A DNA stretch of 40,296 bases from a virus (lineage: Duplodnaviria; Heunggongvirae; Uroviricota; Caudoviricetes). Positions within the stretch are counted from its first letter, which is position 1. Each line of letters starts with the position of its first letter. The stretch lies in IMG/VR virus record IMGVR_UViG_2585427770_000004, one strand, 5' to 3'. Shown here in pieces: positions 1 to 40,296 of this stretch. A program made the position numbers and the translations under genes. The notes beneath the pieces are model-generated. The model was not told where the DNA came from. It worked only from the letters and a program-made list of their open reading frames with translations, and ran no database searches.

Positions 1-1158
1 ATGCTCACCGTTAAGCAGATTGAAGCAGCAAAGCCGAAAGAAAAACCATACCGCCTACTCGATGGTAATGGCCTGTACCTTTATGTCCCTGTGTCAGGGA
101 AAAAGGTATGGCAGCTTCGCTACAAGATTGACGGTAAGGAGAAAATCCTGACCGTAGGAAAATATCCGCTTATGACTTTGCAGGAGGCAAGGGATAAGGC
201 ATGGACTGCGAGGAAAGAGATCTCGGCTGGCATCGATCCGGTAAAAGCGAAAAAGGCTTCGTCTAACAACAATTCCTTTAGTGCCATTTACAAGGAATGG
301 TACGAGCACAAGAAGCAAGTCTGGTCAGTAGGCTATGCAACTGAACTTGCCAAAATGTTTGATGACGACATTTTACCCATCATCGGCGGTCTTGAGATTC
401 AGGATATTGAGCCGATGCAACTGCTGGAAGTAATCCGCAGATTTGAAGATCGCGGTGCAATGGAGCGAGCCAACAAAGCCCGCAGAAGATGCGGCGAGGT
501 TTTCCGTTACGCTATTGTCACCGGAAGGGCTAAATATAACCCGGCACCTGACCTTGCTGACGCCATGAAGGGATACCGCAAGAAGAACTTCCCGTTTCTT
601 CCTGCAGACCAGATCCCGGCATTTAACAAAGCACTGGCAACATTTTCAGGAAGCATCGTATCGCTCATTGCGACCAAAGTTTTACGCTACACAGCCCTCA
701 GAACAAAAGAGCTTCGTTCCATCCTATGGAAGAACGTCGATTTTGAAAACAGGATTATCACCATCGACGCCAGTGTGATGAAGGGACGCAAAATTCATGT
801 GGTTCCTATGTCAGACCAGGTGGTTGAACTTCTCACTACGCTAAGCTCAATCACCAAACCAGTATCAGAGTTTGTTTTTTCCGGGCGCAACGATAAGAAG
901 AAGCCAATCTGCGAGAACGCGGTATTGCTTGTGATCAAACAAATTGGCTATGAGGGTCTGGAAAGCGGTCACGGATTCAGGCATGAATTCAGCACAATTA
1001 TGAACGAGCACGAATGGCCTGCTGACGCTATTGAAGTGCAACTGGCACATGCCAACGGCGGATCTGTGCGTGGGATTTACAACCATGCTCAGTATCTCGA
1101 TAAACGCAGAGAAATGATGCAATGGTGGGCGGACTGGATTGATGAAAAGGTGGAGTGA
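1..1158 (+). CDS. int: Tyrosine integrase (P4/IntS-like family)
   Basis: 385 aa; N-terminus MLTVKQIEAAKPKEKPYRLLDGNGLYLYV typical of P4-type integrases; C-terminal catalytic region with HGFRHEF (HxxR) and RGIYNHAQY (Tyr nucleophile). Confidence 0.9.
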   Translation: MLTVKQIEAAKPKEKPYRLLDGNGLYLYVPVSGKKVWQLRYKIDGKEKILTVGKYPLMTLQEARDKAWTARKEISAGIDPVKAKKASSNNNSFSAIYKEWYEHKKQVWSVGYATELAKMFDDDILPIIGGLEIQDIEPMQLLEVIRRFEDRGAMERANKARRRCGEVFRYAIVTGRAKYNPAPDLADAMKGYRKKNFPFLPADQIPAFNKALATFSGSIVSLIATKVLRYTALRTKELRSILWKNVDFENRIITIDASVMKGRKIHVVPMSDQVVELLTTLSSITKPVSEFVFSGRNDKKKPICENAVLLVIKQIGYEGLESGHGFRHEFSTIMNEHEWPADAIEVQLAHANGGSVRGIYNHAQYLDKRREMMQWWADWIDEKVE

Positions 1159-1375
1159 TCCACCTTAACCACTATCGAAGAGCACAAAGCCTTGCAATCC
1201 AGTACAAAACTTTGTTTGTCTCATCAACCATAGCAAGTCATCGATCGATTGAGGCCTGGATGATAGACTTCATGCCTTTGATTATTAGCTGATAGAAGAA
1301 ATGTTAAAGCTATTTGCAATAGTACACCTCGATTGGTGTTATCAACACGCTAAAATGTTCTGAGATTAAGTCAAG

Positions 1376-2803
1376 ATGGAGTTAATTATGTTCAGAAATC
1401 AATATGCTATATCAGACGCTTCACTAAGTGGTAACATCAGTCCTGACATGGAATGGCACAGGATGAGCATATACCTAGGAGAGGGGGCAGAGGTTTTCGC
1501 TAATGACAATTGCATTATCATAGGTAAAGTCGTCAATAGCTGCGACCCTAGCATGTCCCCTAATGATATAGCAGACGCTGTATCATCATGCGACAGCATT
1601 GAAAGTGTTTTTGAACTGACTGATGGGATGGCAGGAAGATACATAATCGCTTTCATCATAAACTCAGAGGTATATATGCTCACTGATGCTTGCGGATTCA
1701 AAAGAGCTCTATTTATGAGGTATAATGGTGCTAAAATAATAACATCATCTGAAAATTACGCCGCTCACATATTTGGGTTTAACATTGTCATTAATGAAGA
1801 TATAAAAGATATGATGCGGGATGAATCCTACAGAAGAAAAGAAAGCCCATGGTTTGGTTTGACTTCTCCAGATGAAAGATTCAGTTATTTAATACCAAAT
1901 CACTACCTGTATATAGGTGATTTTACGTTACATCGCATGCCCCCGCCAAAAATTGGTGGTGATGTAATTACCAGCGCATCATCAATGATAAAGAATACAA
2001 TTTTAGCACTTTCTGAAAGGTATAAGTTGATACAGCCTATAACGGCTGGCATTGACAGTAGGATTCTTCTTGCAGCATCTGAATCAGTTAAAGATAAAAT
2101 CGATTATTATGTATTTGGAGACGAAAACTCAAACCACGAAGATGTGTCCGTTCCTAAAGAGCTAGCAAAAATAGTTGGCGTAAATTTTAATGCAATCACC
2201 CCTCCGTCAGCACCAGATGAGTTCAAAAAGAAAATCGAAATGACAGTTCTTAGTGGTAGGGATTTGCCAAAAATAGATAATATATACTATCACTATAAAA
2301 ATTCTAACTTTGAAAAAGTAAACATCAATGGTAATGGCGCAGAGATATTCAGGTCGTATTATGGCGCGTCGATATTAGAGTTTAGCGCCAAGTCACTCTC
2401 TATACTTTCTGGAACTAAAAAATGGCCCATCATGGAAAGAAAGATTTATGATTGGCTAACATTAACTGAAGCCAAAAGATTTTCTCAAGAGAACAACATA
2501 TCAATTACCGACCTTTTCTATTGGGAGCAAAGAATGGCAATATGGGGGTCTATGTTCCCTTTAGAGCAAGATATCGCAATGGATGAGGTGTCGCCATTCA
2601 GCAATAGAAAGCTAATTTTCACAATGCTGAGCGAATCTTCAAGCAAACGTAGATCACCAGACTTTAAATCGGCAACTTTGTTAATTAATTTTATGGATGA
2701 CAGATTAAATAAAGTGCCTGTAAATCCAAAATCATCAAACCATATTATAAACTTTATAAAGGCCCATACAATAACTCAGTTAATTGTTAAGAAAATAATC
2801 TAA
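1376..2803 (+). CDS. Asparagine synthetase (AsnB)-like synthetase-domain protein without N-terminal glutaminase cysteine; cargo gene
   Basis: 475 aa, markedly AT-rich by eye; segment GRYIIAFIINSEVYMLTDACGFKRALFMRYNGAKIITSSE resembles the AsnB GATase-II fold, but the N-terminus is MELIMF with no Cys2; degenerate PP-loop ITAGIDSRILL in place of SGGxDS. Confidence 0.45.
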   Translation: MELIMFRNQYAISDASLSGNISPDMEWHRMSIYLGEGAEVFANDNCIIIGKVVNSCDPSMSPNDIADAVSSCDSIESVFELTDGMAGRYIIAFIINSEVYMLTDACGFKRALFMRYNGAKIITSSENYAAHIFGFNIVINEDIKDMMRDESYRRKESPWFGLTSPDERFSYLIPNHYLYIGDFTLHRMPPPKIGGDVITSASSMIKNTILALSERYKLIQPITAGIDSRILLAASESVKDKIDYYVFGDENSNHEDVSVPKELAKIVGVNFNAITPPSAPDEFKKKIEMTVLSGRDLPKIDNIYYHYKNSNFEKVNINGNGAEIFRSYYGASILEFSAKSLSILSGTKKWPIMERKIYDWLTLTEAKRFSQENNISITDLFYWEQRMAIWGSMFPLEQDIAMDEVSPFSNRKLIFTMLSESSSKRRSPDFKSATLLINFMDDRLNKVPVNPKSSNHIINFIKAHTITQLIVKKII

Positions 2804-2814
2804 ATTTTAAATTT

Positions 2815-2847
2815 ATCAATATCGGGGAATGCAACCCCGATATTGAT
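2815..2847. terminator. Bidirectional terminator: perfect 13-bp inverted repeat between convergent genes
   Basis: ATCAATATCGGGG-AATGCAA-CCCCGATATTGAT with AT-rich flanks, between the AsnB-like gene (+) and the beta-helix gene (-). Confidence 0.6.
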
Positions 2848-2871
2848 TTAGATTGCGTGATTGATATGCAT

Positions 2872-4518
2872 TTAAATTATTGATAGCGTTCTGATTTCAT
2901 TCCCGACCGGTGATGTCATAACTATCCGTGTTACGTTAGCGCCGGACACCGTATACGTCAGAATTATGTTACCAGCGGTTCCTATATTAAAGTTTTGTTT
3001 AGCCCCTGATGAACCTATAGCTTTGGCATTCGTTAAAGTATACGTATTACCTGAGGTAAATCCTGTAGAAATTACAAATTGTTGATCAACTTTAAAAGGA
3101 ACTGTCATTGTTACGGATGTTGACTCGACAGTAACAAATGGCAGGCTAGGCTGTTTAACCCCCGTCACATCCCAGAACTCACAGTCGCGCACCAATGCTC
3201 GACTAATTAAACCGCGAGTTACAGGGAAGGTTGTCTGGTCCTGCGATAAGAATGCCCCAACGATTTGCACGTTATCGAGCGTAATATCGTGTACCGTGGT
3301 CCCATCTATAGGACTTAACGTTGGTGATGCACTCCAGAGTTTACCCCCCTTCATTTTGATACTCACAGGGGCATTTGGGTCTCCACCATAATATGCACGG
3401 ATACGCTCAAATTTACAATCTGTGAGTTCATAGCTGCCGCGTTGATTGGTTTCGAACATTGTGTAAGCCTCGCCAGGCACGCCATGTCTAACATTGCTGG
3501 CAACAACACGGGGGTTATGTCGGAACGATGCCGACGTAACAGAGAAAACCGGCGCGCAGACATCATTGATTATAATGTCCGTGGTATAACGCCCTGTAAC
3601 AGCGTTCTCAGAGTTACTCATATCCGAATATAGCGCTTTAAAACGGGAGAAGTCTATGTTAAGCCCAACCCCTGCGCTTTTCGGGAGGGGGCCAAAATCA
3701 AGCCCGTCAATAACAATTTTCTTAGGGAAGTAAAGAGTATCATCACGGCCCACAGTTATTAAAGTTCCAGGGTAAGTAGACACACTTCCTGGATAAACTT
3801 TAATATCTTTCAGGGTGATATTATTAAATAACGTAGGACTTATAGGCGAACCGCTACTCGGCCCTTGCCCGGCAGTGACGGCAGCATTGATAATGCCGTT
3901 ACCTGGAACGCCGTTACGCAAACCAGTTAGCTTGATATTCTCCATGTATAAATCACCATCAAAGTAACCACCCGCATCTGAGCGAGTTGCAATGATGTTT
4001 CCAGGCATGTCTGGCGATGAATTGAATGTTGAGTTTGTGACGTACAGGTCGCCAATCCCTGTTACAAGAACCCCGCTGCGGCCGATGTTGCAGTCATTGA
4101 TTTTTAAGTAGTTCTGGAATGGCATATGGAAATCAATCCGGCTTAAGTCGCACCTTTCAAATCGCACATTTGCACAATTATTGCTGCCAGTTGCGCCCCA
4201 CCCTTCCCCGTTTGCGGTTGCGTTTTTGATAGTTACATTCATTGAGTTACCCAACCCGATGGTGTAGGAGTAGATATCTCCCGTTCCTGTGAACGAGTCG
4301 GCAACCGAGGGCGCGAATAACCCATCAACGATGACATCGTAGCTTTCGTTGATTTCAAGACGGCTATCGCTGAAGTTTTGTGTTAGCGGCCTATTAATAA
4401 ATGAAGTATTAATCAGGCGAACTCGTGACGCTTGATTAATGTAAATAATTCGATAATTCTTTGTAAGACTTTCATCTATGGTTAGACCTTTAATAGTTTG
4501 CACGATTACGCGAAACAC
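2872..4518 (-). CDS. Orphan right-handed beta-helix protein (tailspike receptor-binding / polysaccharide depolymerase-like) lacking a head-binding domain
   Basis: 548 aa rich in G/N/T/S/V runs typical of pectate-lyase-like beta-helices (e.g. NGVPGNGIINAAVTAGQG); GTG start at 4516-4518 with an in-frame stop 10 codons upstream; no P22-type N-terminal adaptor; lies 78 bp downstream of the UmuD'-like gene on the same strand. Confidence 0.5.
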   Translation of the reverse strand: MFRVIVQTIKGLTIDESLTKNYRIIYINQASRVRLINTSFINRPLTQNFSDSRLEINESYDVIVDGLFAPSVADSFTGTGDIYSYTIGLGNSMNVTIKNATANGEGWGATGSNNCANVRFERCDLSRIDFHMPFQNYLKINDCNIGRSGVLVTGIGDLYVTNSTFNSSPDMPGNIIATRSDAGGYFDGDLYMENIKLTGLRNGVPGNGIINAAVTAGQGPSSGSPISPTLFNNITLKDIKVYPGSVSTYPGTLITVGRDDTLYFPKKIVIDGLDFGPLPKSAGVGLNIDFSRFKALYSDMSNSENAVTGRYTTDIIINDVCAPVFSVTSASFRHNPRVVASNVRHGVPGEAYTMFETNQRGSYELTDCKFERIRAYYGGDPNAPVSIKMKGGKLWSASPTLSPIDGTTVHDITLDNVQIVGAFLSQDQTTFPVTRGLISRALVRDCEFWDVTGVKQPSLPFVTVESTSVTMTVPFKVDQQFVISTGFTSGNTYTLTNAKAIGSSGAKQNFNIGTAGNIILTYTVSGANVTRIVMTSPVGNEIRTLSII

Positions 4519-4596
4519 CCCTGAGAACCGCCATGAACAAGGGTTTCATGATTTGTGATTTTAGTTTGGTACGCAATTTGGTACACAGCACAATTT

Positions 4597-4983
4597 TCAC
4601 TTCAGCGGGTAGTCATCAAACTCACCATAACGAGCATCGTTAATGATGTATGTGATTACGCCAAATATCGCATCAGGGCTCGTTCCGTCATCGTGCAGAG
4701 GTATAGCTTCCCTTCTTCCTGTCTGCAAATCTTCCAGGTGAACCTTGGGTGATTTTCGGTATCGCTTAATCCTCAGCTCACCTTCCATTCTGCAAACAAG
4801 TAATGAGCCGTCGCATGGTGATAGCGAAGCATCCACAACCAGCAGCGCGCCATTCAGGATACCTTCCCGGTAGTGCGTCGCACCCGCTCGCATGAAGTAC
4901 GTTGCCGCTGGCCTGCTTATGATGCACTTGTCGAGCGATATGCGCTCTTCAACGTAGTCTTGTGCTGGACTCGGGAATCCCAT
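4597..4983 (-). CDS. UmuD'-like protein (S24 peptidase fold; HumD-like analogue of processed UmuD)
   Basis: 128 aa starting MGFPSPAQDYVEERI, matching the region immediately after the UmuD Cys24-Gly25 cleavage site (GFPSPAADYVEQRI); the ASGDSM serine motif appears replaced (AGATHY); RBS GGAGGTG upstream. Confidence 0.7.
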   Translation of the reverse strand: MGFPSPAQDYVEERISLDKCIISRPAATYFMRAGATHYREGILNGALLVVDASLSPCDGSLLVCRMEGELRIKRYRKSPKVHLEDLQTGRREAIPLHDDGTSPDAIFGVITYIINDARYGEFDDYPLK

Positions 4984-5000
4984 AACTCACCTCCGATGGA

Positions 5001-5020
5001 TACTGTATATTAATACAGCA
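5001..5020 (-). promoter_or_regulatory. LexA operator (SOS box) upstream of the UmuD'-like gene
   Basis: TACTGTATATTAATACAGCA has a perfect CTG-N10-CAG core with AT-rich spacer, 18 bp upstream of the start codon at 4983. Confidence 0.7.
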
Positions 5021-5118
5021 TTACTGATCGGCGGTGTCGATCAATAGCGTTTGTGGTGCTAAACTTCAGACCTTTCAGAAGCTACTGATACTTATCAAAA
5101 AACTATTATAGGTGTATT

Positions 5119-6216
5119 TTGGAAATCGATAACAGTCCACCAAGAAAGAATAACCTTCAGTATATACAGGCGCTTAGGGCTATTGCAGCTATGCTTGTCG
5201 TACTTTGCCATGCAAGGGATTTTTTGAAAGGAACAGAATATGAATGGCTGGCTCAGCGATTATTTTGGCCTGGTGCATTCGGAGTTGATTTATTTTTCAT
5301 CATTAGTGGTTTTATCATAATTTATACGTCTCATAGCTACCAAAGCAATGATTTGATAAAGTTTATTAAAAAACGTTTCTTAAGAGTTTGGCCTCTATAT
5401 TTCATCATGACTATTGCATATATAGTCATTGTTAAAAATGTTGATTTATCTTTAATGCATGGGTTTTCATATAACCAATCATCTAGCTCATTTGAATTAA
5501 CAAACATAATCAAAGGTTTGCTTTTCATTCCACTAAACACTGAGTCACCTATATACTTTGGGCCTCCATCATTGTTCGTTGGATGGACCCTCAATTATGA
5601 AATATATTTTTATTTAGTTTGCGCCATTGGAATAGCGCTGGGGAAGTTTAGGTATACATTTTATATATTATGGTTTTTCATTACACTGTTAGCTTTGCCA
5701 TCTATTGCGGGTGTATTCGACAGACCAAAAATTGAAGGTTTAGGATATATAAATTTAACCATGCAAAGCCTGATTTGGGAGTTTGTCTTCGGTGCGATTA
5801 TTGCTATCCTATACAAAAGTGGTAACTTTTCAATTAGAGACAAAAGGATTGCAATACCATTAATTTCGATTGGAATCATAATCCCTGTATGGGCTTACAT
5901 AACACAGTTTGATGCTGGGCATGGGATTTTTCATTCAGGGAAATATTTTTGCATAATGTTTGCATGCTTTACTGCATGCTCTGACTACATACAAGACAAC
6001 ATCAAAATACCACGTATTTTCATCATGATTGGTGATGCTTCATACTCTTTGTATTTAGTTCATCCAATTACGTTTATATTATGCTTTAAGATGATAGATT
6101 GGCTTGGGATGGCTGATTTATCAAAAAGCTTCTCGTTTATTTTTATTGTATTTATAACATCTGTAGCTTTTGCACTACTAAGCTATAAATATATCGAGAA
6201 AAATATTCCAAGATAA
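5119..6216 (+). CDS. Membrane acyltransferase family 3 (Oac/OafA-like O-antigen acetyltransferase); probable lysogenic-conversion gene
   Basis: 365 aa, polytopic and hydrophobic; N-terminal motif IQALRAIAAMLVVLCHA typical of Acyltransferase_3; TTG start at 5119 with no in-frame ATG before the motif; AT-rich. Confidence 0.75.
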   Translation: MEIDNSPPRKNNLQYIQALRAIAAMLVVLCHARDFLKGTEYEWLAQRLFWPGAFGVDLFFIISGFIIIYTSHSYQSNDLIKFIKKRFLRVWPLYFIMTIAYIVIVKNVDLSLMHGFSYNQSSSSFELTNIIKGLLFIPLNTESPIYFGPPSLFVGWTLNYEIYFYLVCAIGIALGKFRYTFYILWFFITLLALPSIAGVFDRPKIEGLGYINLTMQSLIWEFVFGAIIAILYKSGNFSIRDKRIAIPLISIGIIIPVWAYITQFDAGHGIFHSGKYFCIMFACFTACSDYIQDNIKIPRIFIMIGDASYSLYLVHPITFILCFKMIDWLGMADLSKSFSFIFIVFITSVAFALLSYKYIEKNIPR

Positions 6217-6223
6217 TTTTGAA

Positions 6224-6246
6224 GCGGCATGTTTGAAACATGCCGC
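6224..6246. terminator. Bidirectional terminator between convergent acyltransferase and tailspike genes
   Basis: Palindrome GCGGCATGTTT-G-AAACATGCCGC flanked by T/A runs in the 36-bp gap between 6216 and 6253. Confidence 0.6.
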
Positions 6247-6252
6247 TATTGG

Positions 6253-8175
6253 TTAGGCAGAAATATTCACAATCCCCCATGTACTTCCATTCCACACCCA
6301 TTGGACAGTAGGGTCGGAAGGATATGTTGCTGGAGATGTTCTGTAGGACACCAAGCCGATTGGGAAAGAACCTGTGTTCTCTGTCACAGTAGGCTTTACG
6401 CTAGATCTCATTTTTACTTTCTCCCATCCGCAGAATACTGGAAGAAAGGTTCCGTTATACGGGCTAAAATACGCTCCTCCAACATAAGCGCTCATTCCGG
6501 ATTCAACTGTAATCCTTAATCTGTATGCTTTACTTTTGTCGTTGGTTGGCGCTGAAACTTTGTATAACTTCCACCCTCCAACACCCATATCGTAGAACTT
6601 ATTAACTGACATATAGATGGAATTAGTACCATCTTGGGCTTCTATAGCTATCTCAAGTGGTGTGTCGCCTTTAAAGTAAAAAGCTCCACGAATGAAACCT
6701 GTCTGTGTTTTAGTTAAATTTAGGGTTATTCTGCAAAGTTGAGATGCGTTAGTGACTCCAAACCATCTACCGCAGCCAGATGGTTCATTAGGGTCAGAAC
6801 CAACCTTTCGTTCGTTCGGTATAATTAAAAGGGAATAGTCAATAGGTGCTCCGTAGACTCCATCAATAACCGACCAATCTCCAGAAGGGCAAAGATTAGA
6901 ACCGGAGACACTGAACGTATCTCCTCCCTGTGCGCCTGCTGTAGGGTCTGTCCCTAATATGGTATTCATGGGGCTCATGGTTGAGGCCCAGTTACCATAT
7001 TGCACACGCGCGCCAAGTATGGTCCACGGCCCACGTATTTTCCCATTGCCCGTAACCTCGCCATACAAACCTATCACAACATTATGCTGATTTGGGGTGC
7101 TATTGTTATAGAGCAAATAATCGCCGCTTCCCGATGTGTCAAGACCTATAAATGTGTTTGCGTTCCCCTCATACGGAGCACCGGTCTGGCGACTAAAACC
7201 CGATCCAGTTATGATCAGACCACCACCGCAAAGCTGCTCAAATGTATTTTGATTTATAGATCCATCAGAGATGTCAATTATGAATCTGCCACCACCTGAC
7301 GTAGTACCTGTTTTGATGCGTACAAATTGATTCCAAAAACTCCCGCCACCCCATTCAACCAACCCAGGCAGAGTGTATGCGTCTGATGATAAAAATCTTA
7401 TATCGCCGGTCGTATCAATGTTCGAGATAATAGAAAACTGTAGCCCTCTAATGTATAACGATTTACATGAAAGGCCAGTTACATTTATAGATTTACTATG
7501 AAGGATTAGGAAATCCCCGTTAGGGATTCGGCCAACACAATCAACGTTACAGCGGATCACAAAGCGACCAGCAGAAGCATGAATGCCAGTCAGCTTGGTC
7601 ATATCAACGACATAATCGCCTGGAGGGATATGCAATGATTTTCTGTTTTTCCCATACTCAACTAATTGTGAATAATCACCGTTAGCATAATCCAATGCCT
7701 CACACAGTTTAGCAGTAACATCTGTACCATCCGGGAATACTCCCCATCCACGCACGTCTAAATCATCACGCCAGCGATAAATCTGCAATGCGGGATATTT
7801 GGTTGCCCCATCAGGGTCTTCAATCTGCTGCCTTAACTGATCTGGATCATACTTCAACACGTTTGGATAGTTGAACTGCTGTGTACCATAAGCATCGTAC
7901 ACAGCCATAGAATGGCCTTGCACGGTAACGAATTTGGCAATCTGTCCGTTATATACAGGATAACCAGCAGCGTTAATGATGATTGGTTGCGAAACAGGAA
8001 CGTGAGAGCCGTCTTCGTTCTCCACATAAACCTGAATCTGGTTTTCAGGATTTACCGGGTCAGTGTCAATTTTACCGATATAAATTTTGCCATTGGCAAC
8101 CGCTTTAAAAGAACGCGCCATAGTGAAGAGTTGCGAAGGCATGCTTACTACAACATTGGCTGTAATGTCTGTCAT
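6253..8175 (-). CDS. Tailspike protein (P22 gp9 family) with conserved N-terminal head-binding domain and divergent receptor-binding domain
   Basis: 640 aa; N-terminus [97 protein letters not shown] matches the P22/HK620/Sf6 adaptor domain as recalled; the remainder is beta-helix-like but unrecognised. Confidence 0.9.
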
Positions 8176-8233
8176 TTAATTTGCTCCAGATACAAGGAAT
8201 CGCCGCAGCGTAGCTACGGTGAATTTTGGGCAT

Positions 8234-8256
8234 AAAAAAACCCAGCCGAAGCTGGG
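8234..8256 (-). terminator. Rho-independent terminator between ant and tailspike
   Basis: Minus strand reads CCCAGC-TTCG-GCTGGG followed by TTTTTTTATG. Confidence 0.6.
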
Positions 8257-8275
8257 TCGTTGCGTTGGTTATCTG

Positions 8276-9154
8276 TCAGTAGTTATGTACTGAAGGAGGC
8301 AATTCTTTATTCTTAAGTCTCATCCATGCGGAAAGATTCGTTGGTCCGTCTGGCTCATTAATATCAACATCTCGTGTGTGGTTTATTAAAACGTCTCTCG
8401 CCATTCCGATAACATACGAGAATTCATGACCGTAGTCGTAGCATCTGCCGGAATAGTTCGATTGAATTTGTTTTAGCGCCGGATACAGTTCGCGGAATAA
8501 TGCCTGTGAGCGGTTGGCATAATCCCATAACCATACAAGGCTGTTTGCTTCTTTTGCAGAAAGCTCGTTGGTTTTCTTCTCTTGTTTGCCAATGAACTCA
8601 CCTTCAAGCACTACCCTGTGGATGTACTCTACGGCCAGCGGGATTTGTTCAATTGAAAGTTCATCAATGCTGTCAATACCAAAACGCTGATGAACCATAT
8701 TGTATGCATCGTCATAGCGAAGTCCTTTCCTTCCTACCAGCATGTTTACTGCATCGCGTAGCGGTGTTCTTTCCTCAACAGTGGTTTTCTTTCCTTTTAC
8801 ATACTCGCCATGTTTGCGAATTGAAGGCAGAACTTCTGCTGTTACCCACTTGCGGAATTTGTGCGGGACTGAACCTTTATTGACTGCATCGCGGCAGCGC
8901 AGAACCAATGTATACATACCTGATTCGCTCACAATGCTTAGATTCTGCTCACCACCAAGGGTGTAACTTAAAGTTACTCCCTTTTCATCGTCATCAAGTG
9001 CAGTAAGCGCCTTGCGTGAGTTAGTCAAATCTAAAGCATCACAAACATCTTTAGCTACAAACCACGGCTCACCGCACTTGTTGATGACGCGGATTTCACT
9101 GTCGCCGAATTTGAAGATGGTGAAATCGTTTTGTGCCTTTGCTATACTTTTCAT
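8276..9154 (-). CDS. ant: Antirepressor Ant (KilA-N/Bro-N type)
   Basis: 292 aa directly downstream of arc on the same strand; N-terminus [30 protein letters not shown] matches the antirepressor N-terminal domain. Confidence 0.8.
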
Positions 9155-9222
9155 GTCAATATTTCCTAATCCGATTTGTTGATGCCGAAGCCCTGACTGT
9201 TACAGCAGTTGGGGCTTCAACT

Positions 9223-9384
9223 TTACGCACCAATGCGCCCTTCCTTCTTAAAGCTTTCCATTACTCGCTGATAAATCTCAGAATTAACAGACCGACCATT
9301 TTCTTCCGCCACCTTGCGTACCAAATCCAATACTTCTTTAGGCCACCGCAAATTGAACTGTGGCATTTTGCTCATTCCTTTCAT
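9223..9384 (-). CDS. arc: Arc repressor
   Basis: 53 aa MKGMSKMPQFNLRWPKEVLDLVRKVAEENGRSVNSEIYQRVMESFKKEGRIGA, essentially P22 Arc as recalled; the track ORF 9223..9447 extends upstream over the operator. Confidence 0.9.
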   Translation of the reverse strand: MKGMSKMPQFNLRWPKEVLDLVRKVAEENGRSVNSEIYQRVMESFKKEGRIGA

Positions 9385-9399
9385 GTTCACCTCACAATA

Positions 9400-9418
9400 T
9401 AGGTCCACGGTGGACCTA
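9400..9418. promoter_or_regulatory. Mnt operator (O-mnt)
   Basis: Perfect 19-bp palindrome TAGGTCCACGGTGGACCTA between arc and mnt. Confidence 0.75.
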
Positions 9419-9426
9419 TTGAGAAT

Positions 9427-9447
9427 ATAGTAGAGTGCTTCTATCAT
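9427..9447. promoter_or_regulatory. Arc operator (O-arc)
   Basis: ATAGTAGAGTGCTTCTATCAT is the reverse complement of the recalled P22 arc operator ATGATAGAAGCACTCTACTAT. Confidence 0.75.
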
Positions 9448-9474
9448 GTCAATACACTAACTTGGAGTGATGGC

Positions 9475-9729
9475 ATGGCTAGAGATGATCCGCACTTTAA
9501 CTTCCGTATGCCTTTGGAAGTAAGAGAAAAATTGAAATTAAGAGCCGAGGCTAACGGAAGGTCAATGAACTCTGAGTTATTACAAATCGTTCAGGATGCA
9601 CTATCAAAACCATCACCGATTACAGGATATCGCGACGAAGCTGAACGCTTGGCTGATCAGCAGGCTGAGCAGTTCAAGGCTATAGTGTTTGAGACACTTA
9701 AAAAGATTTATGAAAAGGATTTGAAATGA
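9475..9729 (+). CDS. mnt: Mnt repressor
   Basis: 84 aa MARDDPHFNFRMPLEVREKLKLRAEANGRSMNSELLQIVQDALSKPSPITGY, near-identical to P22 Mnt as recalled. Confidence 0.9.
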   Translation: MARDDPHFNFRMPLEVREKLKLRAEANGRSMNSELLQIVQDALSKPSPITGYRDEAERLADQQAEQFKAIVFETLKKIYEKDLK

Positions 9730-10061
9730 GATTTCTATCACTGTTCTTGTTAGCAGTTGTCTCTTCTTCCAGTGCTGAGCTGCGCGAGCTTCAAACGGGT
9801 AATGACCTTCTTTACAACATTCAACAAGGTAAAAAGGGTGATGATTTTTCATCGCTTTACATTACTGGATATTTGCGCGGAGTAACTGACTCATTGATAC
9901 TAATTGGTTCTCTATGTCCTCCTGATGGCGTTGACATGTATCAATACACCGATATCGTTGAGAAATATCTAAACAAAAACCCAGAATCAAGAAATGAGAG
10001 TGCAGTTATACTAACCGCCCTAGCAGTAGGAAAAACATTTCCGTGCAAAAAGAATCAATAA
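9726..10061 (+). CDS. Secreted/periplasmic protein of unknown function (signal peptide), translationally coupled to mnt
   Basis: 111 aa; N-terminus MRFLSLFLLAVVSSSSAEL is signal-peptide-like; two Cys; ATGA start/stop overlap with mnt. Confidence 0.5.
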   Translation: MRFLSLFLLAVVSSSSAELRELQTGNDLLYNIQQGKKGDDFSSLYITGYLRGVTDSLILIGSLCPPDGVDMYQYTDIVEKYLNKNPESRNESAVILTALAVGKTFPCKKNQ

Positions 10062-10076
10062 CAATAAGGGCTTAAA

Positions 10077-10466
10077 ATGAAATTGATTATAGCAATGGCT
10101 TTCCTTGTCTTCTCGTTTTCTGTCTCAGCAGAGTGCTGGGTCGTTGGAGATATGCACGGAATAAGCTATTCAGAACGAAATAATTTTCAACCGGAAGAAG
10201 ATGGTTTTAGTGGAACATTCATCATTAAGACAAACGGTGAAGATGCCAGTATCACATATTCTGGGACGGATGCGGGCGGCATGGCTTACAAAGCATTGTC
10301 TAAAAACTCCATCATTGGAATCGGCGCGAATGGCGAAACTCAACGAGTTATCGACTCATGGGTAATACATCCTAATGGAACAGTTTTAATGTCGAAAACC
10401 ATTTCTGGTTATGGGAATATGGATTCAACCAAAGCTTTTGTTGGAAAAGTAAAAAGAAAATGTTAA
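10077..10466 (+). CDS. Secreted/periplasmic protein of unknown function (signal peptide)
   Basis: 129 aa; N-terminus MKLIIAMAFLVFSFSVSAEC is signal-peptide-like; RBS AAGGG upstream; C-terminal KRKC. Confidence 0.5.
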   Translation: MKLIIAMAFLVFSFSVSAECWVVGDMHGISYSERNNFQPEEDGFSGTFIIKTNGEDASITYSGTDAGGMAYKALSKNSIIGIGANGETQRVIDSWVIHPNGTVLMSKTISGYGNMDSTKAFVGKVKRKC

Positions 10467-10490
10467 CGATTGAATCCAATTCCCCATACG

Positions 10491-12332
10491 TTACTGCTGT
10501 GTTGCCTCAGTAGCAAGCAGCGGCCTGATGGCATTTGCAGCGTTACTCAACGCTCTTTCATAGGCTGGCGTTCCAGCTTTAGTGTTTGCCAGACGTAAGA
10601 GAGCATTCCTTGCTGCTTTGGACTCATACAAACGCATCATTGCACCAAAGCCAGCCTCAAGCCCCATTGATACACCAAGAGTCGCAGTTGCGCCAATCGT
10701 CCTTATCCTGTTGGCTTGTGATTGCCCCGTCTGAGTTACTACATTTGCAGTGTCTGACCTTGCTGTTTGCTGTAGAACTTCATGAAGAGCATCAAGCTCT
10801 TTCATGTGCTTTCCAGAAAAAATAGTGTTGTAAATTTCACCGCCTGACTGAGATTTCAGCTTATTAACTTCAGTGATGAACTTGGCTGGAGAGTCACCGG
10901 CCTTTTCCGCTATTTTGCTGACGTAAGCTGCACGCATAGCATCTTTCCCTTTATCATCCAGGGCGCTCCATATTCGTTTCACGTCAGATGGTTTTCTGCT
11001 TAATACAACGGTATTTATAAGTTCAGGACTGGCTTCACTGCTTGCCTTGTTGAGCTTGTTAGCAATGTTTTTATTAAGCACCTTATTATAAACGTTTGCA
11101 TAATCGGAATTTGCTTTAAGGTATTTTGCTGCGTCTGATGCACCGAGGTTTTTAGCAACTGCGTTACGAAGGTCTTTTGACATTGCATTCTCTACCATAT
11201 TGGTAGCTGCTTTTGCCTGGTTGGGGAAGACCATAGCATCTCCCTGAACATTAGATCTAAATGCTGTTCTGTGCTGACGCAAGAGATCAAACGTAACATC
11301 CAAATCAGTTGCAGGGTTTGCTAATTCTTCACGTAGGTTACGCAAGGATGTAAGCAGGCTTTGATTGGCAGACGTCCCAAGCCGTTCCTGTCTTGCGATC
11401 GCTGTATTCAGAGCATTCATGGTATTTGTGGTATCAACTGCGGCATTACCCATTTTATTGGTGACGTCATTGATAACAGCGCCAGCGGCATCCTTCCGCC
11501 CCCTTAACGTGGTGGTAAGAGATTTCACCACATCATCAGGGTTGTACTCACCAAAACGGTCAAAATAATTACTTACCAGCTTACTACGCGTTGCATATTG
11601 CTCCGCTCGCTTTGAGCCTGTCCCTAGCAAAGCCCCCTCGGCATCCTGAGTTAGGCCGCGAGTGAAAGCATTTTTCGGCGGGATAACATCAGATGTCATT
11701 GGTGTCACGCCCATCGATTCTGATGTGGCAATTTTCTTCGCCACTTCTGGCGCAATATCACCTTTTATAGCCGTTATTCCACGCCCTATTCCCTTTGCTG
11801 CTGCGGAAAGAACACCCTGAGTGGCAAGGTTAACTCCGGCATTTTTAGCTGCATTTTGTGCGAAATCGCCTTTCTGATTTGCGGCCTCTGCCAGTGATCC
11901 AATAGCCATGCTTCCTGCCGTTCCAACTCCTGGAACTAAATACCCACCAATTGTTTCACCGGCTTGCGCGTAGGGGTCTGTCGGTCTGTCTACTGGACGA
12001 TAAACATCATCCAAAACCTTGGGTCCACCAAGCCCCTGACTGATTGCATTAATCAGACTTGCGCCGCCCTGCAATACGTCAAATGGTATGTTTACCAGAC
12101 CACGACCAGCCTGTTCTGCAATTTGCCCTGCACTTTGACCACCAGTGAGCCAATCGCCAGCTTGTTGCATCAATGATGGTTCTTCCCGTGTTGGTGCATT
12201 ATTGGCCTGATTAACTGTTTGTTGCTGAACAGCCTGACCAGCAAAATACTCATCAATGGCGGTGCCAATATCTTCGGTGCTCGTACCATCAGGAAAGGTA
12301 AATGTCTTACCGTTTGCAGTTACTTTCATCAT
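10491..12332 (-). CDS. DNA ejection/transfer protein gp16
   Basis: 613 aa; N-terminus [33 protein letters not shown] matches P22 gp16; true start may be the second ATG at 12329 (ATGATGA overlap with the gp20 stop). Confidence 0.85.
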
Positions 12333-13744
12333 TCCACCGTAAATTGAATGCCTGATTTTGAGGTATATGATCCAACCTGATTCCGTGGTTCTCCTGAAGG
12401 TGTCGAATCTTGTGCTGGCGCTGCGTCAGTATTCATTGACATATACCGCTTAACGGCACTCCCCAATGATTCACCTTTTTTAACATCCAACCCCAATATC
12501 TGACCGCCATTACGCGATTGTCCAGGGTTGCCATTCGCGCTCATCCACTCGGCTTTAAACTCATTAAACTGCGCGTTTCGTCGCTCAAGGTTTGCCATTG
12601 CATCAAGCCATCTTGCGACCGTCTCAGGGTTATCCATGTCAGTTGGCGCACCCTGTCGAACGATCTCAACGTCTTTATCCGTTGCTGGGCCGGGAGGTAG
12701 GAATTTAAGAACCTGACTGTTAACAAGGGCATTTTGGCGAATGCGCAAATCACGCAATGTTGTATCGCTTCCGGTAAGTTTTGCGAACATGTTCTGTGCG
12801 TTACCGAACAAACCTGTCGTTGGTTTTTCTGCTCTGAACTGTTGAGCAAGCGCACTCATAGAATTGGCTGAGTTTGATGATGCTGTAGCATTGTTTACAG
12901 CCGTCTCGATGCCTTTTTCCATGTTTACTGACAGCTTAGGTGCTTCGCTAATCAACTGCTGAGCCTTTTCCTGCGCTTGCTGCATCTTAAACCCGAACTC
13001 TTGCTGATCCAGAGCCAAGCGTTGTGCTGCGATATTGTGCCCAGTCATTGCTGACTGATAGGAAAGGTTTTGCCCTCTCGCCTGAAGTGCTTCACCAGCC
13101 TGATTGCTGCGGATTGTCTCTGCCAGCCTGCCTCGGTCAATCTCACGACCAGCCATCTTGTCCTGAACAGCAAACGCCTTTTCTGGTCCAAGCGCACCGA
13201 GAGACATAGTAGTCAGCATGTGTGATAGCTGCTCTGGATTCTGGATACCTGTCTGAATCATCCAGTCAGCATTAGCACCAACGCGATTTAACCTGTCCTT
13301 GTTGTCAGTAATGAATTTACTGTAGGCTTCCGGTCCCTGAGAAAGAGCGACGTTAGCCCTCATGGCTAAATCGCCCATATCGTTGCGTTGCTGATCATTA
13401 AGACCGGAAAACGCCTGTTGTGCCTGTGCAACAAACGCTGGATTTTCCTGGGCAAACTTAAATAGTCCCGATGGATCACCAGAAGCCCATGCATCAGCGT
13501 GAACCTTATTGAACGCACTAATAGCTTTCTGTTGCTTTTCCTGATTGTAAATATCAGCAACTCCAGCCAGACCACGTAACGCGGTCAGGCCAACGTTATT
13601 TGCACCTGAGCGAGCCAGTTCATTGTTTTCGCGGATCAGACCAAGCGTTGCGTTAATGTCGCTTGCCTTTGGCGCATTCTCATTTTGCGTACCGATGCCA
13701 GCCAGAAAACCACCAGAATTAATACCCTGTTGCCACGTAGCCAT
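12329..13744 (-). CDS. DNA ejection protein gp20
   Basis: 471 aa, the size of P22 gp20; Q/A/N-rich; position between gp7 and gp16. Confidence 0.8.
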
Positions 13745-40095: not shown

Positions 40096-40296
40096 ATGCA
40101 ACACGAACTACAGCCTGATTCCCTGGTTGATTTGAAATTCATCATGGCCGATACTGGCTTCGGTAAAACCTTCATCTATGACCGGATTAAGTCCGGCGAC
40201 CTGCCAAAAGCCAAAGTTATCCACGGTCGAGCAAGATGGTTATATCGTGACCATTGTGAATTCAAAAATAAGCTCTTAAGCCGCGCCAATGGGTAA
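40096..40296 (+). CDS. xis: Excisionase / AlpA-family DNA-binding protein
   Basis: 66 aa; LVDLKFIMADTGFGKTFIYDRIKSGDLPKAKVIHGRARWLYRDHCEF fits the AlpA/Xis winged-helix family; immediately upstream of int in the circular map. Confidence 0.65.
   Translation: MQHELQPDSLVDLKFIMADTGFGKTFIYDRIKSGDLPKAKVIHGRARWLYRDHCEFKNKLLSRANG

Follow-up and report, generated by a model that had tools for sequence, protein, structure and literature searches.

The open reading frame (ORF) at positions 2872 to 4518 (minus strand) of the IMG/VR virus record IMGVR_UViG_2585427770_000004 (40,296 nt; this whole stretch is called the window here) is very probably a very recent, 5′-truncated remnant, corresponding to the 3′ two-thirds of the former tailspike gene of a P22-like prophage resident at argW. 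This parent gene, which we call tspX, is found intact elsewhere, and the break in it coincides with the core of the phage attachment site (attP) of a second P22-like phage, whose tailspike gene now stands nearby. The account as a whole, in which the ORF is a relic of tspX, arose by recombination at the attP core, was fixed by the collapse of a tandem prophage and plays no role in the virion, we regard as likely.

The ORF corresponds to the 3′ part of an intact tailspike gene

The ORF has 548 codons and starts with a GTG at 4518-4516; reading the minus strand confirmed an in-frame TGA (4548-4546) nine codons 5′ of it. It lies between int and the working tailspike gene, from which it is separated by oac (plus strand) and humD (minus strand), and it is therefore outside the late operon. 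Scans of the 548-residue product gave no match at E ≤ 0.1 in Pfam, Head_binding (PF09008) included, and none in NCBIfam. PHROGs alone among the family libraries recognised it (PHROG 16586, 'tail fiber protein', E 2.6e-118), with a match limited to profile positions 424-961 of 963, which first hinted that a longer protein had been cut down to its C-terminal part. An earlier reading of the window, made from the sequence only, had described a GTG start behind a stop codon, a product without a head-binding domain, a location outside the late operon and, at 6253-8175, a complete tailspike with the adaptor domain, and it was right on each of these (Pfam Head_binding in the latter, E 7.7e-66). Two independent Escherichia coli assemblies agree with the window at the junction, so the arrangement is not an assembly artefact: over window 1-12503, GCA_000713605.1 is 100% and GCA_016678315.1 is 99.976% identical, neither with a junction difference. 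The NCBI annotation of the same ORF starts at the second GTG (4503-4501) and gives 543 residues, and public records name the product 'putative tail fiber domain protein' or 'hypothetical protein'.

The argW P22-like prophage of E. coli GS04 encodes a tailspike of 843 residues ('phage head-binding domain-containing protein'), to which residues 3-548 of the ORF align without gaps at 92% identity (GS04 residues 298-843). Closer still, two 843-residue Head_binding proteins from the protein database (P0006 and P0007) are 100% identical to the ORF over the shared length, ORF residues 6-548 being residues 301-843 of intact tspX. In P0007, Pfam places the Head_binding domain at residues 1-113 (E 8.7e-67), and its gene lies in an argW-site prophage (locus L007) with the order int, orf471 and then the convergent 843-residue tailspike. 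Window positions 1-4504 are 99.956% identical to L007, with both differences in orf475, the window's gene convergent with the ORF, and the 1,633 bp derived from tspX show 0 nucleotide differences from the intact gene. This homology stops abruptly at 4504, to the right of which the window and L007 are only 86-94% identical (91% in the head-binding region). Between the window-type and L007 hosts, the chromosomal flanks are 98.1% identical, which, set against the 99.956% of the shared block, indicates that the identical block moved as phage DNA.

The ORF has thus lost the native start and the upstream signals of tspX, and no disabling mutation is found in the frame that remains, a state that is consistent with a very recent event and neutral as to function. 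As there is not one substitution relative to a working gene, the intact frame is no evidence for selection; the ORF is open because the truncation is young, and selection is not needed to account for it.

The break lies in an attP core

Three features make up the junction.

2872 to 4504, minus strand: segment from the resident prophage's former tailspike gene tspX (3′ 1,633 bp), without a nucleotide difference from L007
4497 to 4510: what is left of a 13-bp attP core as used by Sf101/2851/HK544-type integrases (window TTTgCACGATTACG versus core TTTCACGATTACG)
4505 to 4596, minus strand: donor-phage spacer from the attP core to the humD stop (P′ arm), supplying the GTG of the ORF and any ribosome-binding site

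The crossover falls in CACG (4501-4504), bases common to tspX and the attP core. Across the junction the window reads ...AATAGTTTGCACG and then ATTACGCGAAACACC; the site in intact tspX reads ...TTTGCACGTCCTTGCG (in a longer reading ...AATAGTTTGCACGTCCTTGCG), and the same site in HK544, Sf101 and the attR of strains ANT and NCTC9038 reads ...TTTCACGATTACGCG. The HK544 record annotates TTTCACGATTACG as the attP core ('type 2851'), and the attP of Sf101 and phage 2851 has been described as the same 13 bp, 5′-CGTAATCGTGAAA-3′, with integration in the 5′ end of sbcB (PMC4159516). The window retains 10 of the 13 core bases together with the whole phage arm on the humD side, so that the breakpoint is inside the attP core and the adjacent arm is intact. 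Consequently, the GTG and first five codons of the ORF (GTG TTT CGC GTA AT-; M F R V I) are foreign, being attP-flank spacer 3′ of humD, and this start region is unchanged relative to HK544 and ANT; the second GTG, used as the start by NCBI, is inside the attP core.

A close relative of the donor side was found in strain NCTC9038, where the dacD-proximal (attR-proximal) end of a decayed E. coli prophage at the dacD/sbcB locus is 99.4% identical to window 4486-6789, which runs from the spacer through humD and oac into the 3′ part of the present 640-residue tailspike gene. A prophage remnant in strain ANT carries the same humD-oac-tailspike end.

Between the attachment core and humD are two direct GTACCAAA repeats (4565-4572 and 4577-4584), 12 bp apart, which may be arm-type integrase sites. 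Inverted copies of these repeats (TTGGTAC) occur near int in the attL region of ANT. Separately, several Shiga toxin (Stx) phage records, FJ188381 and LC645408 among them, carry a feature of ~336 bp labelled 'duplication due to insertion of stx2c phage', which is homologous to window 4496-4833, that is, to the attachment core and the 3′ two-thirds of humD; hence, the repeat at those Stx prophage ends includes a humD fragment.

The ORF starts inside the beta-helix

The model that AlphaFold gives for the full-length parent (mean predicted local distance difference test score, pLDDT, 80; residues 121-843 confident) was matched by Foldseek to the structure of the capsule depolymerase K64-ORF41 determined by cryo-electron microscopy (8x8m_A; E 8.6e-39, template modelling (TM) scores 0.75/0.82) and, more weakly, to the K1 lyase, AP22 gp54, LKA1 gp49 and phi297 gp61 (7w1c, 4y9v, 4ru4, 4ru5). 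The sole significant PDB sequence match of the ORF itself was also 8X8M (E 4.6e-20, identity about 21%). Going by the model, the closest structural relatives of the tspX fold are lyases, and the sequence-only reading was correct in calling a beta-helix depolymerase fold: in the structure comparison that it had proposed, the parent superposes on the beta-helix of K64-ORF41, the ORF being residues 301-843 of the modelled protein. What that reading had taken for a beta-helix protein is, however, an incomplete helix that starts ~177 residues inside the body.

The catalytic residues of K64-ORF41 are Tyr528, His574 and Arg628 (PMC11652154). Tyr85, His131 and Arg179 of the ORF align to Y548, H594 and R648 of the deposited chain, equal to native 528/574/628 once a 20-residue tag is subtracted (an offset taken from the native length of 1017 versus the deposited 1037), and the corresponding parent residues Y380, H426 and R474 are invariant in the family alignment (A1).

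Where the conserved body begins was judged from three observations: tspX 125-843 is conserved, at 60% identity, with a fibre of the Shigella phage MK-13; Pfam gives a pectate-lyase-like N-terminal match at tspX residues 124-170; and the parent model shows a capping helix and short beta-strands across residues 135-208. The truncation at residue 301 is therefore not at a domain boundary. The ORF, which holds tspX 301-843 only and so no complete beta-helix body, is without the head-binding domain, the linker and ~177 body residues, namely the N-terminal cap and the first rungs of the beta-helix. Their loss probably compromises folding and trimerisation, and an active trimer is unlikely. The ORF had also been considered as a complete exchangeable module, phage matches covering 97-100% of it, and this was rejected as the parent aligns to MK-13 from residue 125.

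Proposed origin of the hybrid prophage

The site of the prophage can be read from its relatives. An E. coli contig with 100% identity over 12.5 kb has the integrase gene next to chromosomal flank with yfdC/mlaA, and since in strain GS04 yfdC and intS are separated by a tRNA-Arg (argW) gene, the site is argW. The two ends of the window are as follows.

1 to 1158, plus strand: IntS-type integrase of the resident argW prophage, at the left end of the window
40096 to 40296, plus strand: TorI-like excisionase ORF, recognised by eye

The ORF at the far end we take to be a TorI-like excisionase from its likeness, by eye, to the TorI sequence. If this call is correct, the window is a whole P22-like hybrid prophage. 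No second integrase was found in the window.

The donor would have been a second P22-like phage of the Sf101/2851 type, with the layout tailspike-oac-humD-attP-int; Sf101 has this layout, but with a short hypothetical ORF at the position homologous to humD. Recombination would have joined the donor's attP core to a position within the tspX gene of the resident argW prophage, most likely in a reaction catalysed or initiated by the donor's own integrase at a secondary (non-att) site, and humD, oac, the 640-residue tailspike gene and the rest of the incoming genome would thus have been placed beside the 3′ part of tspX. With both genomes in the same orientation, a later homologous crossover would have collapsed the tandem into one hybrid prophage, deleting the integrase end of the incomer and the 5′ part of the resident's tailspike gene. 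The product would have IntS, orf475 and truncated tspX on the left, the humD, oac and tailspike of the incomer in the middle, and the TorI-like ORF, as called by eye, on the right; the in-frame GTG would have been gained by accident from the attP-adjacent spacer. Given that the ORF is a relic, we consider the integrase route moderately probable.

The opposite polarity, in which the resident was an Sf101-like phage and orf475 and the truncated tspX were inserted near its attP, was rejected: an intact argW prophage matches the block of int, orf475 and the tspX 3′ part at 99.956% identity, but everything to the right of this block at only 86-94%.

Alternative explanations

Several observations weigh against parts of this account, and those on the junction concern the integrase. 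In an edit-distance scan of 26.8 kb of parental sequence, the tspX site was no better a match to an attachment site than expected by chance: 138 sites match the attB left arm and half-core as well or better, and with other scan patterns up to 666 sites equal or beat it. Because the tspX site is at chance level, only the donor-side breakpoint speaks for an integrase. Moreover, the predicted reciprocal junction, CCTTCCTCTTT(G)CACGTCCTTGCGTATTTTAAGG, or a tandem intermediate was not found in 5,426 complete E. coli genomes, although its absence is expected if the tandem collapsed. The same relic could then have been formed by microhomology-mediated illegitimate recombination at the 4-bp CACG, no integrase being involved and the position in the attP core being coincidental. 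This would suit an exact identity at the crossover of just 4 bp and a target that mimics an attachment site at chance level, and strain IZSBS22 offers another illegitimate-looking hybrid junction of these two phage types, with a humD 3′ fragment abutting the intS 3′ end. Against such a coincidence, the donor broke within 13 bp although 3′ of the tailspike it had some 2 kb or more of DNA that it could spare, for which we estimate odds of roughly 1% or less, and the P′ arm was kept intact up to the core. We therefore see the microhomology route as possible, though rather unlikely.

The remaining points against concern the product. The ORF retains an open frame with the aligned Tyr, His and Arg; it lies 78 nt 3′ of humD on the same strand, and neither a terminator nor a promoter is predicted between them, so that SOS-induced read-through from humD is possible. 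For the first GTG, an AGGG stretch is immediately adjacent (Shine-Dalgarno spacing 0 nt), and for the second, AGGGGU is at a distance of ~12 nt; the pairing energies computed for the two GTGs (-5.5 and -6.0 kcal/mol) are within the range of the window's real genes, a comparison that did not discriminate. Some expression as a crippled fragment may therefore occur. One could go further and suppose a working soluble polysaccharide lyase, made on induction by SOS read-through from humD, started at either GTG and released at lysis to strip polysaccharide; the LexA-box-like site upstream of humD would fit this, as would the activity of an N-terminally shortened P22 tailspike. Yet the cut lies 177 residues into the conserved body rather than at the domain boundary (residue about 120), with the pectate-lyase-type start and the first rungs gone, and the start codon and 5′ region are plain attP flank, as in HK544 and ANT, with no sign of adaptation. 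The spacing of the putative Shine-Dalgarno stretches is poor at either GTG, no signal peptide is recognisable by eye at the N-terminus, which would keep polysaccharide out of reach before lysis, and the ORF is limited to a handful of near-identical isolates; its intactness, given zero substitutions, is silent on selection. A free depolymerase would have its own expression signals and a complete catalytic domain, and what was found is no promoter-like site between humD and the ORF, a start in attachment-site flank and a fold without its N-terminus. A working soluble lyase is thus highly improbable.

The idea that the ORF encodes a second receptor-binding protein, entering virions by some means that does not need the head-binding domain, is barely credible. 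Beyond the open frame, it can draw only on the existence of branched tailspike systems in other phage groups. No adaptor or docking domain was found in the ORF by Pfam or NCBIfam and its first five residues come from attachment-site spacer; the working tailspike shows Head_binding alone in Pfam and PHROG matches in the head-binding region, with no branching or docking domain in those scans; and the parent attaches through the very domain that was deleted. The ORF product is not expected to join the virion. Hence, of the three options left by the sequence-only reading, that of a relic is upheld by the 843-residue parent, the 1,633 identical bp, the break inside the body and the foreign start, whereas for a soluble depolymerase and a second receptor-binding protein there is no positive evidence.

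A broader proposal would make integrase-driven insertion into another phage's tailspike gene a recurrent route for swapping 'tailspike plus serotype-conversion' cassettes and, in addition, would see humD with the truncated tspX as expressing a soluble uronate lyase fragment in the SOS response at lysis, or as a silent cassette for recombination; we hold this to be a long shot.

Distribution of the truncated form and other tspX remnants

In the protein database, the truncated form (543 or 548 residues) comes from about 16 contigs of a few E. coli isolate series, which are near-identical. The junction was absent from the 5,426 complete E. coli genomes, and neither the viral contigs of IMG/VR nor the metagenome contigs of JGI contained the exact 29-mer across it. 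The collinear arrangement of the window was likewise found in no complete E. coli genome, the high-coverage matches in strains ANT and DAM being rearranged, with IS1.

Independent remnants of tspX occur elsewhere: one of 658 residues in strain ANT, cut by IS1; a frameshifted tspX pair beside an IS481 element in strain 32F4; and a remnant of 446 residues whose cluster has 60 member sequences. Tailspike remnants that modular exchange leaves behind are thus nothing out of the ordinary, and it is the degree to which the origin can be resolved that is unusual here. In ANT (locus L004, 7841-13018), two IS1 copies flank orf471 and the 658-residue remnant in a composite-transposon-like arrangement, and this block adjoins humD-oac in a decayed sbcB-site prophage.

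At the dacD/sbcB site of E. coli IZSBS22 (locus L002, 5001-7681), a humD 3′ fragment (equivalent to window 4486-4833) is joined directly to the final 60 bp of an IntS-type int gene with orf471 or gtrA (equivalent to window 1098 onward); many E. coli genomes are alike in this. The IZSBS22-type junction is a second, different hybrid of sbcB-type and argW-type P22-like phages and suggests a repeated exchange of the conversion region.

Neighbouring genes

On the resident side, the ORF faces the original convergent partner of tspX.

1376 to 2803, plus strand: orf475, protein with the fold of AsnB/beta-lactam synthetase, original convergent partner of tspX
2817 to 2846: strong hairpin (13-bp stem, -21.5 kcal/mol, z -5.4), flanked by the stops of the convergent orf475 and ORF

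The hairpin probably terminates transcription in both directions and marks where the tailspike transcript formerly ended. The product of orf475 had no match in Pfam, PHROG or the PDB sequences, and a tblastn search of 50,697 phage records gave none either; the product lies within a broad family of uncharacterised proteins of ~490 residues. In its model (pLDDT 94.6), two domains are folded as in asparagine synthetase B, beta-lactam synthetase and carbapenam synthetase (Foldseek versus 1m1z, E 3.7e-12), and the protein is without an N-terminal Cys. Distant homologues are found in polysaccharide biosynthesis clusters, one of them adjoining a UDP-sugar dehydrogenase. A copy with 84% identity, from Enterobacter hormaechei, likewise has as its partner a tspX-type tailspike, which has a different N-terminal adaptor and belongs to a siphovirus-type prophage; orf475 and the tspX-type tailspike thus travel as a convergent pair across podovirus-type and siphovirus-type prophages (loci L007, L011, L012 and L013). 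Its product is a putative new lysogenic-conversion, polysaccharide-modifying enzyme, and one may speculate that it carries out an ATP-dependent amidation of the uronate carboxyl, shielding the polysaccharide of the lysogen from the lyase tailspike.

On the other side lies the incoming cassette.

4597 to 4983, minus strand: humD, UmuD′-like, 128 residues, full length (NCBIfam HumD, E 6.1e-62, positions 1-128 of 129; Pfam Peptidase_S24)
5003 to 5018: LexA-box-like palindrome CTGTATATTAATACAG, 20 bp upstream of the humD start
5119 to 6216, plus strand: oac-type O-antigen acyltransferase (Pfam Acyl_transf_3, E 1.1e-28; PHROG O-acetyltransferase)
6253 to 8175, minus strand: current complete tailspike, 640 residues (Pfam Head_binding at residues 1-113, E 7.7e-66)

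The palindrome CTGTATATTAATACAG is a perfect one and the sole CTGT-N8-ACAG match in the window, with 0.48 expected by chance, so that its position and not the count carries the argument for a LexA box. A umuC/polV partner was not noticed near humD, and humD-like genes recur beside int/att in unrelated prophages (HK140, mEp234 and the Enterobacter locus L013). The oac gene, which is 99.4% identical to that of the NCTC9038 remnant at dacD/sbcB, arrived together with humD and the current tailspike gene. The body of the current tailspike (residues 114-630) is unrelated to that of tspX and is 51% identical to a gene of phage CBA6.

An ORF of 111 residues (9726-10061, plus strand), situated between gp16 and the tailspike gene in the mnt/arc-ant region, has an apparent signal peptide and a precomputed match to Pfam Rap1a, a type VI secretion immunity-protein family; it may be a moron.

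Implications and comparison with known systems

In annotation, the ORF should be flagged as a truncated tailspike remnant and should not be counted as a second receptor-binding protein in host-range prediction. Beyond this, it is a rare catch of a tailspike replacement almost at once after the event, when both parental arrangements are extant and the exact breakpoint can be read, and this breakpoint points to an attachment-site core, not to the kind of homologous exchange that is usual at the boundary of the head-binding domain. For its one working tailspike, the hybrid has orf475 and oac, both putative conversion genes for surface polysaccharide, which bears on how lysogens accumulate O-antigen modifications.

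In the tailspikes of the P22 family (P22 gp9, Sf6, HK620 and CUS-3), the N-terminal head-binding domain is conserved and the beta-helix body behind it is exchangeable. Intact tspX is built in this way, with Head_binding at residues 1-113 and a beta-helix body, and the window's working tailspike shares the head-binding domain, whereas the ORF is without this domain and the first ~177 body residues. The usual swap in this family is a homologous crossover at the boundary of head-binding domain and body; here, the break is inside the body, with an att core joined to it. K64-ORF41 of the Klebsiella phage SH-KP152410 (PDB 8X8M), from the lyase group of K1-ORF34 and AP22 gp54, is structurally the closest match to the parent, but sequence identity is ~21% and the ORF is a fragment of such an enzyme, a putative lyase. 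An N-terminally shortened P22 tailspike (residues 109-666) is a soluble, active enzyme, and this construct and the ORF both lack the head-binding domain; the P22 construct, however, keeps the entire beta-helix, whereas the ORF starts 177 residues inside it.

Lambdoid phages, for example lambda, integrate at secondary sites other than attB that have partial homology to the core. The junction described here is similar, in that the crossover is within the core and the identity of the target is partial; it differs in that the target is in a resident prophage and the product would have been resolved to a hybrid phage, with a role of the integrase that we infer. The Sf101/2851/HK544 module provides the core bases, the humD-side arm and an oac-tailspike layout as in Sf101, but in the window its partner is the middle of another phage's tailspike gene and not sbcB, and the cognate integrase and the other arm are absent. 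Finally, in prophage remnants of E. coli O104:H4, tailspike and O-antigen acetylase genes are kept while the rest decays (PMC3303846). The independent tspX remnants in ANT and 32F4 resemble that case, whereas the relic described here lies inside an apparently complete hybrid prophage, beside its replacement.

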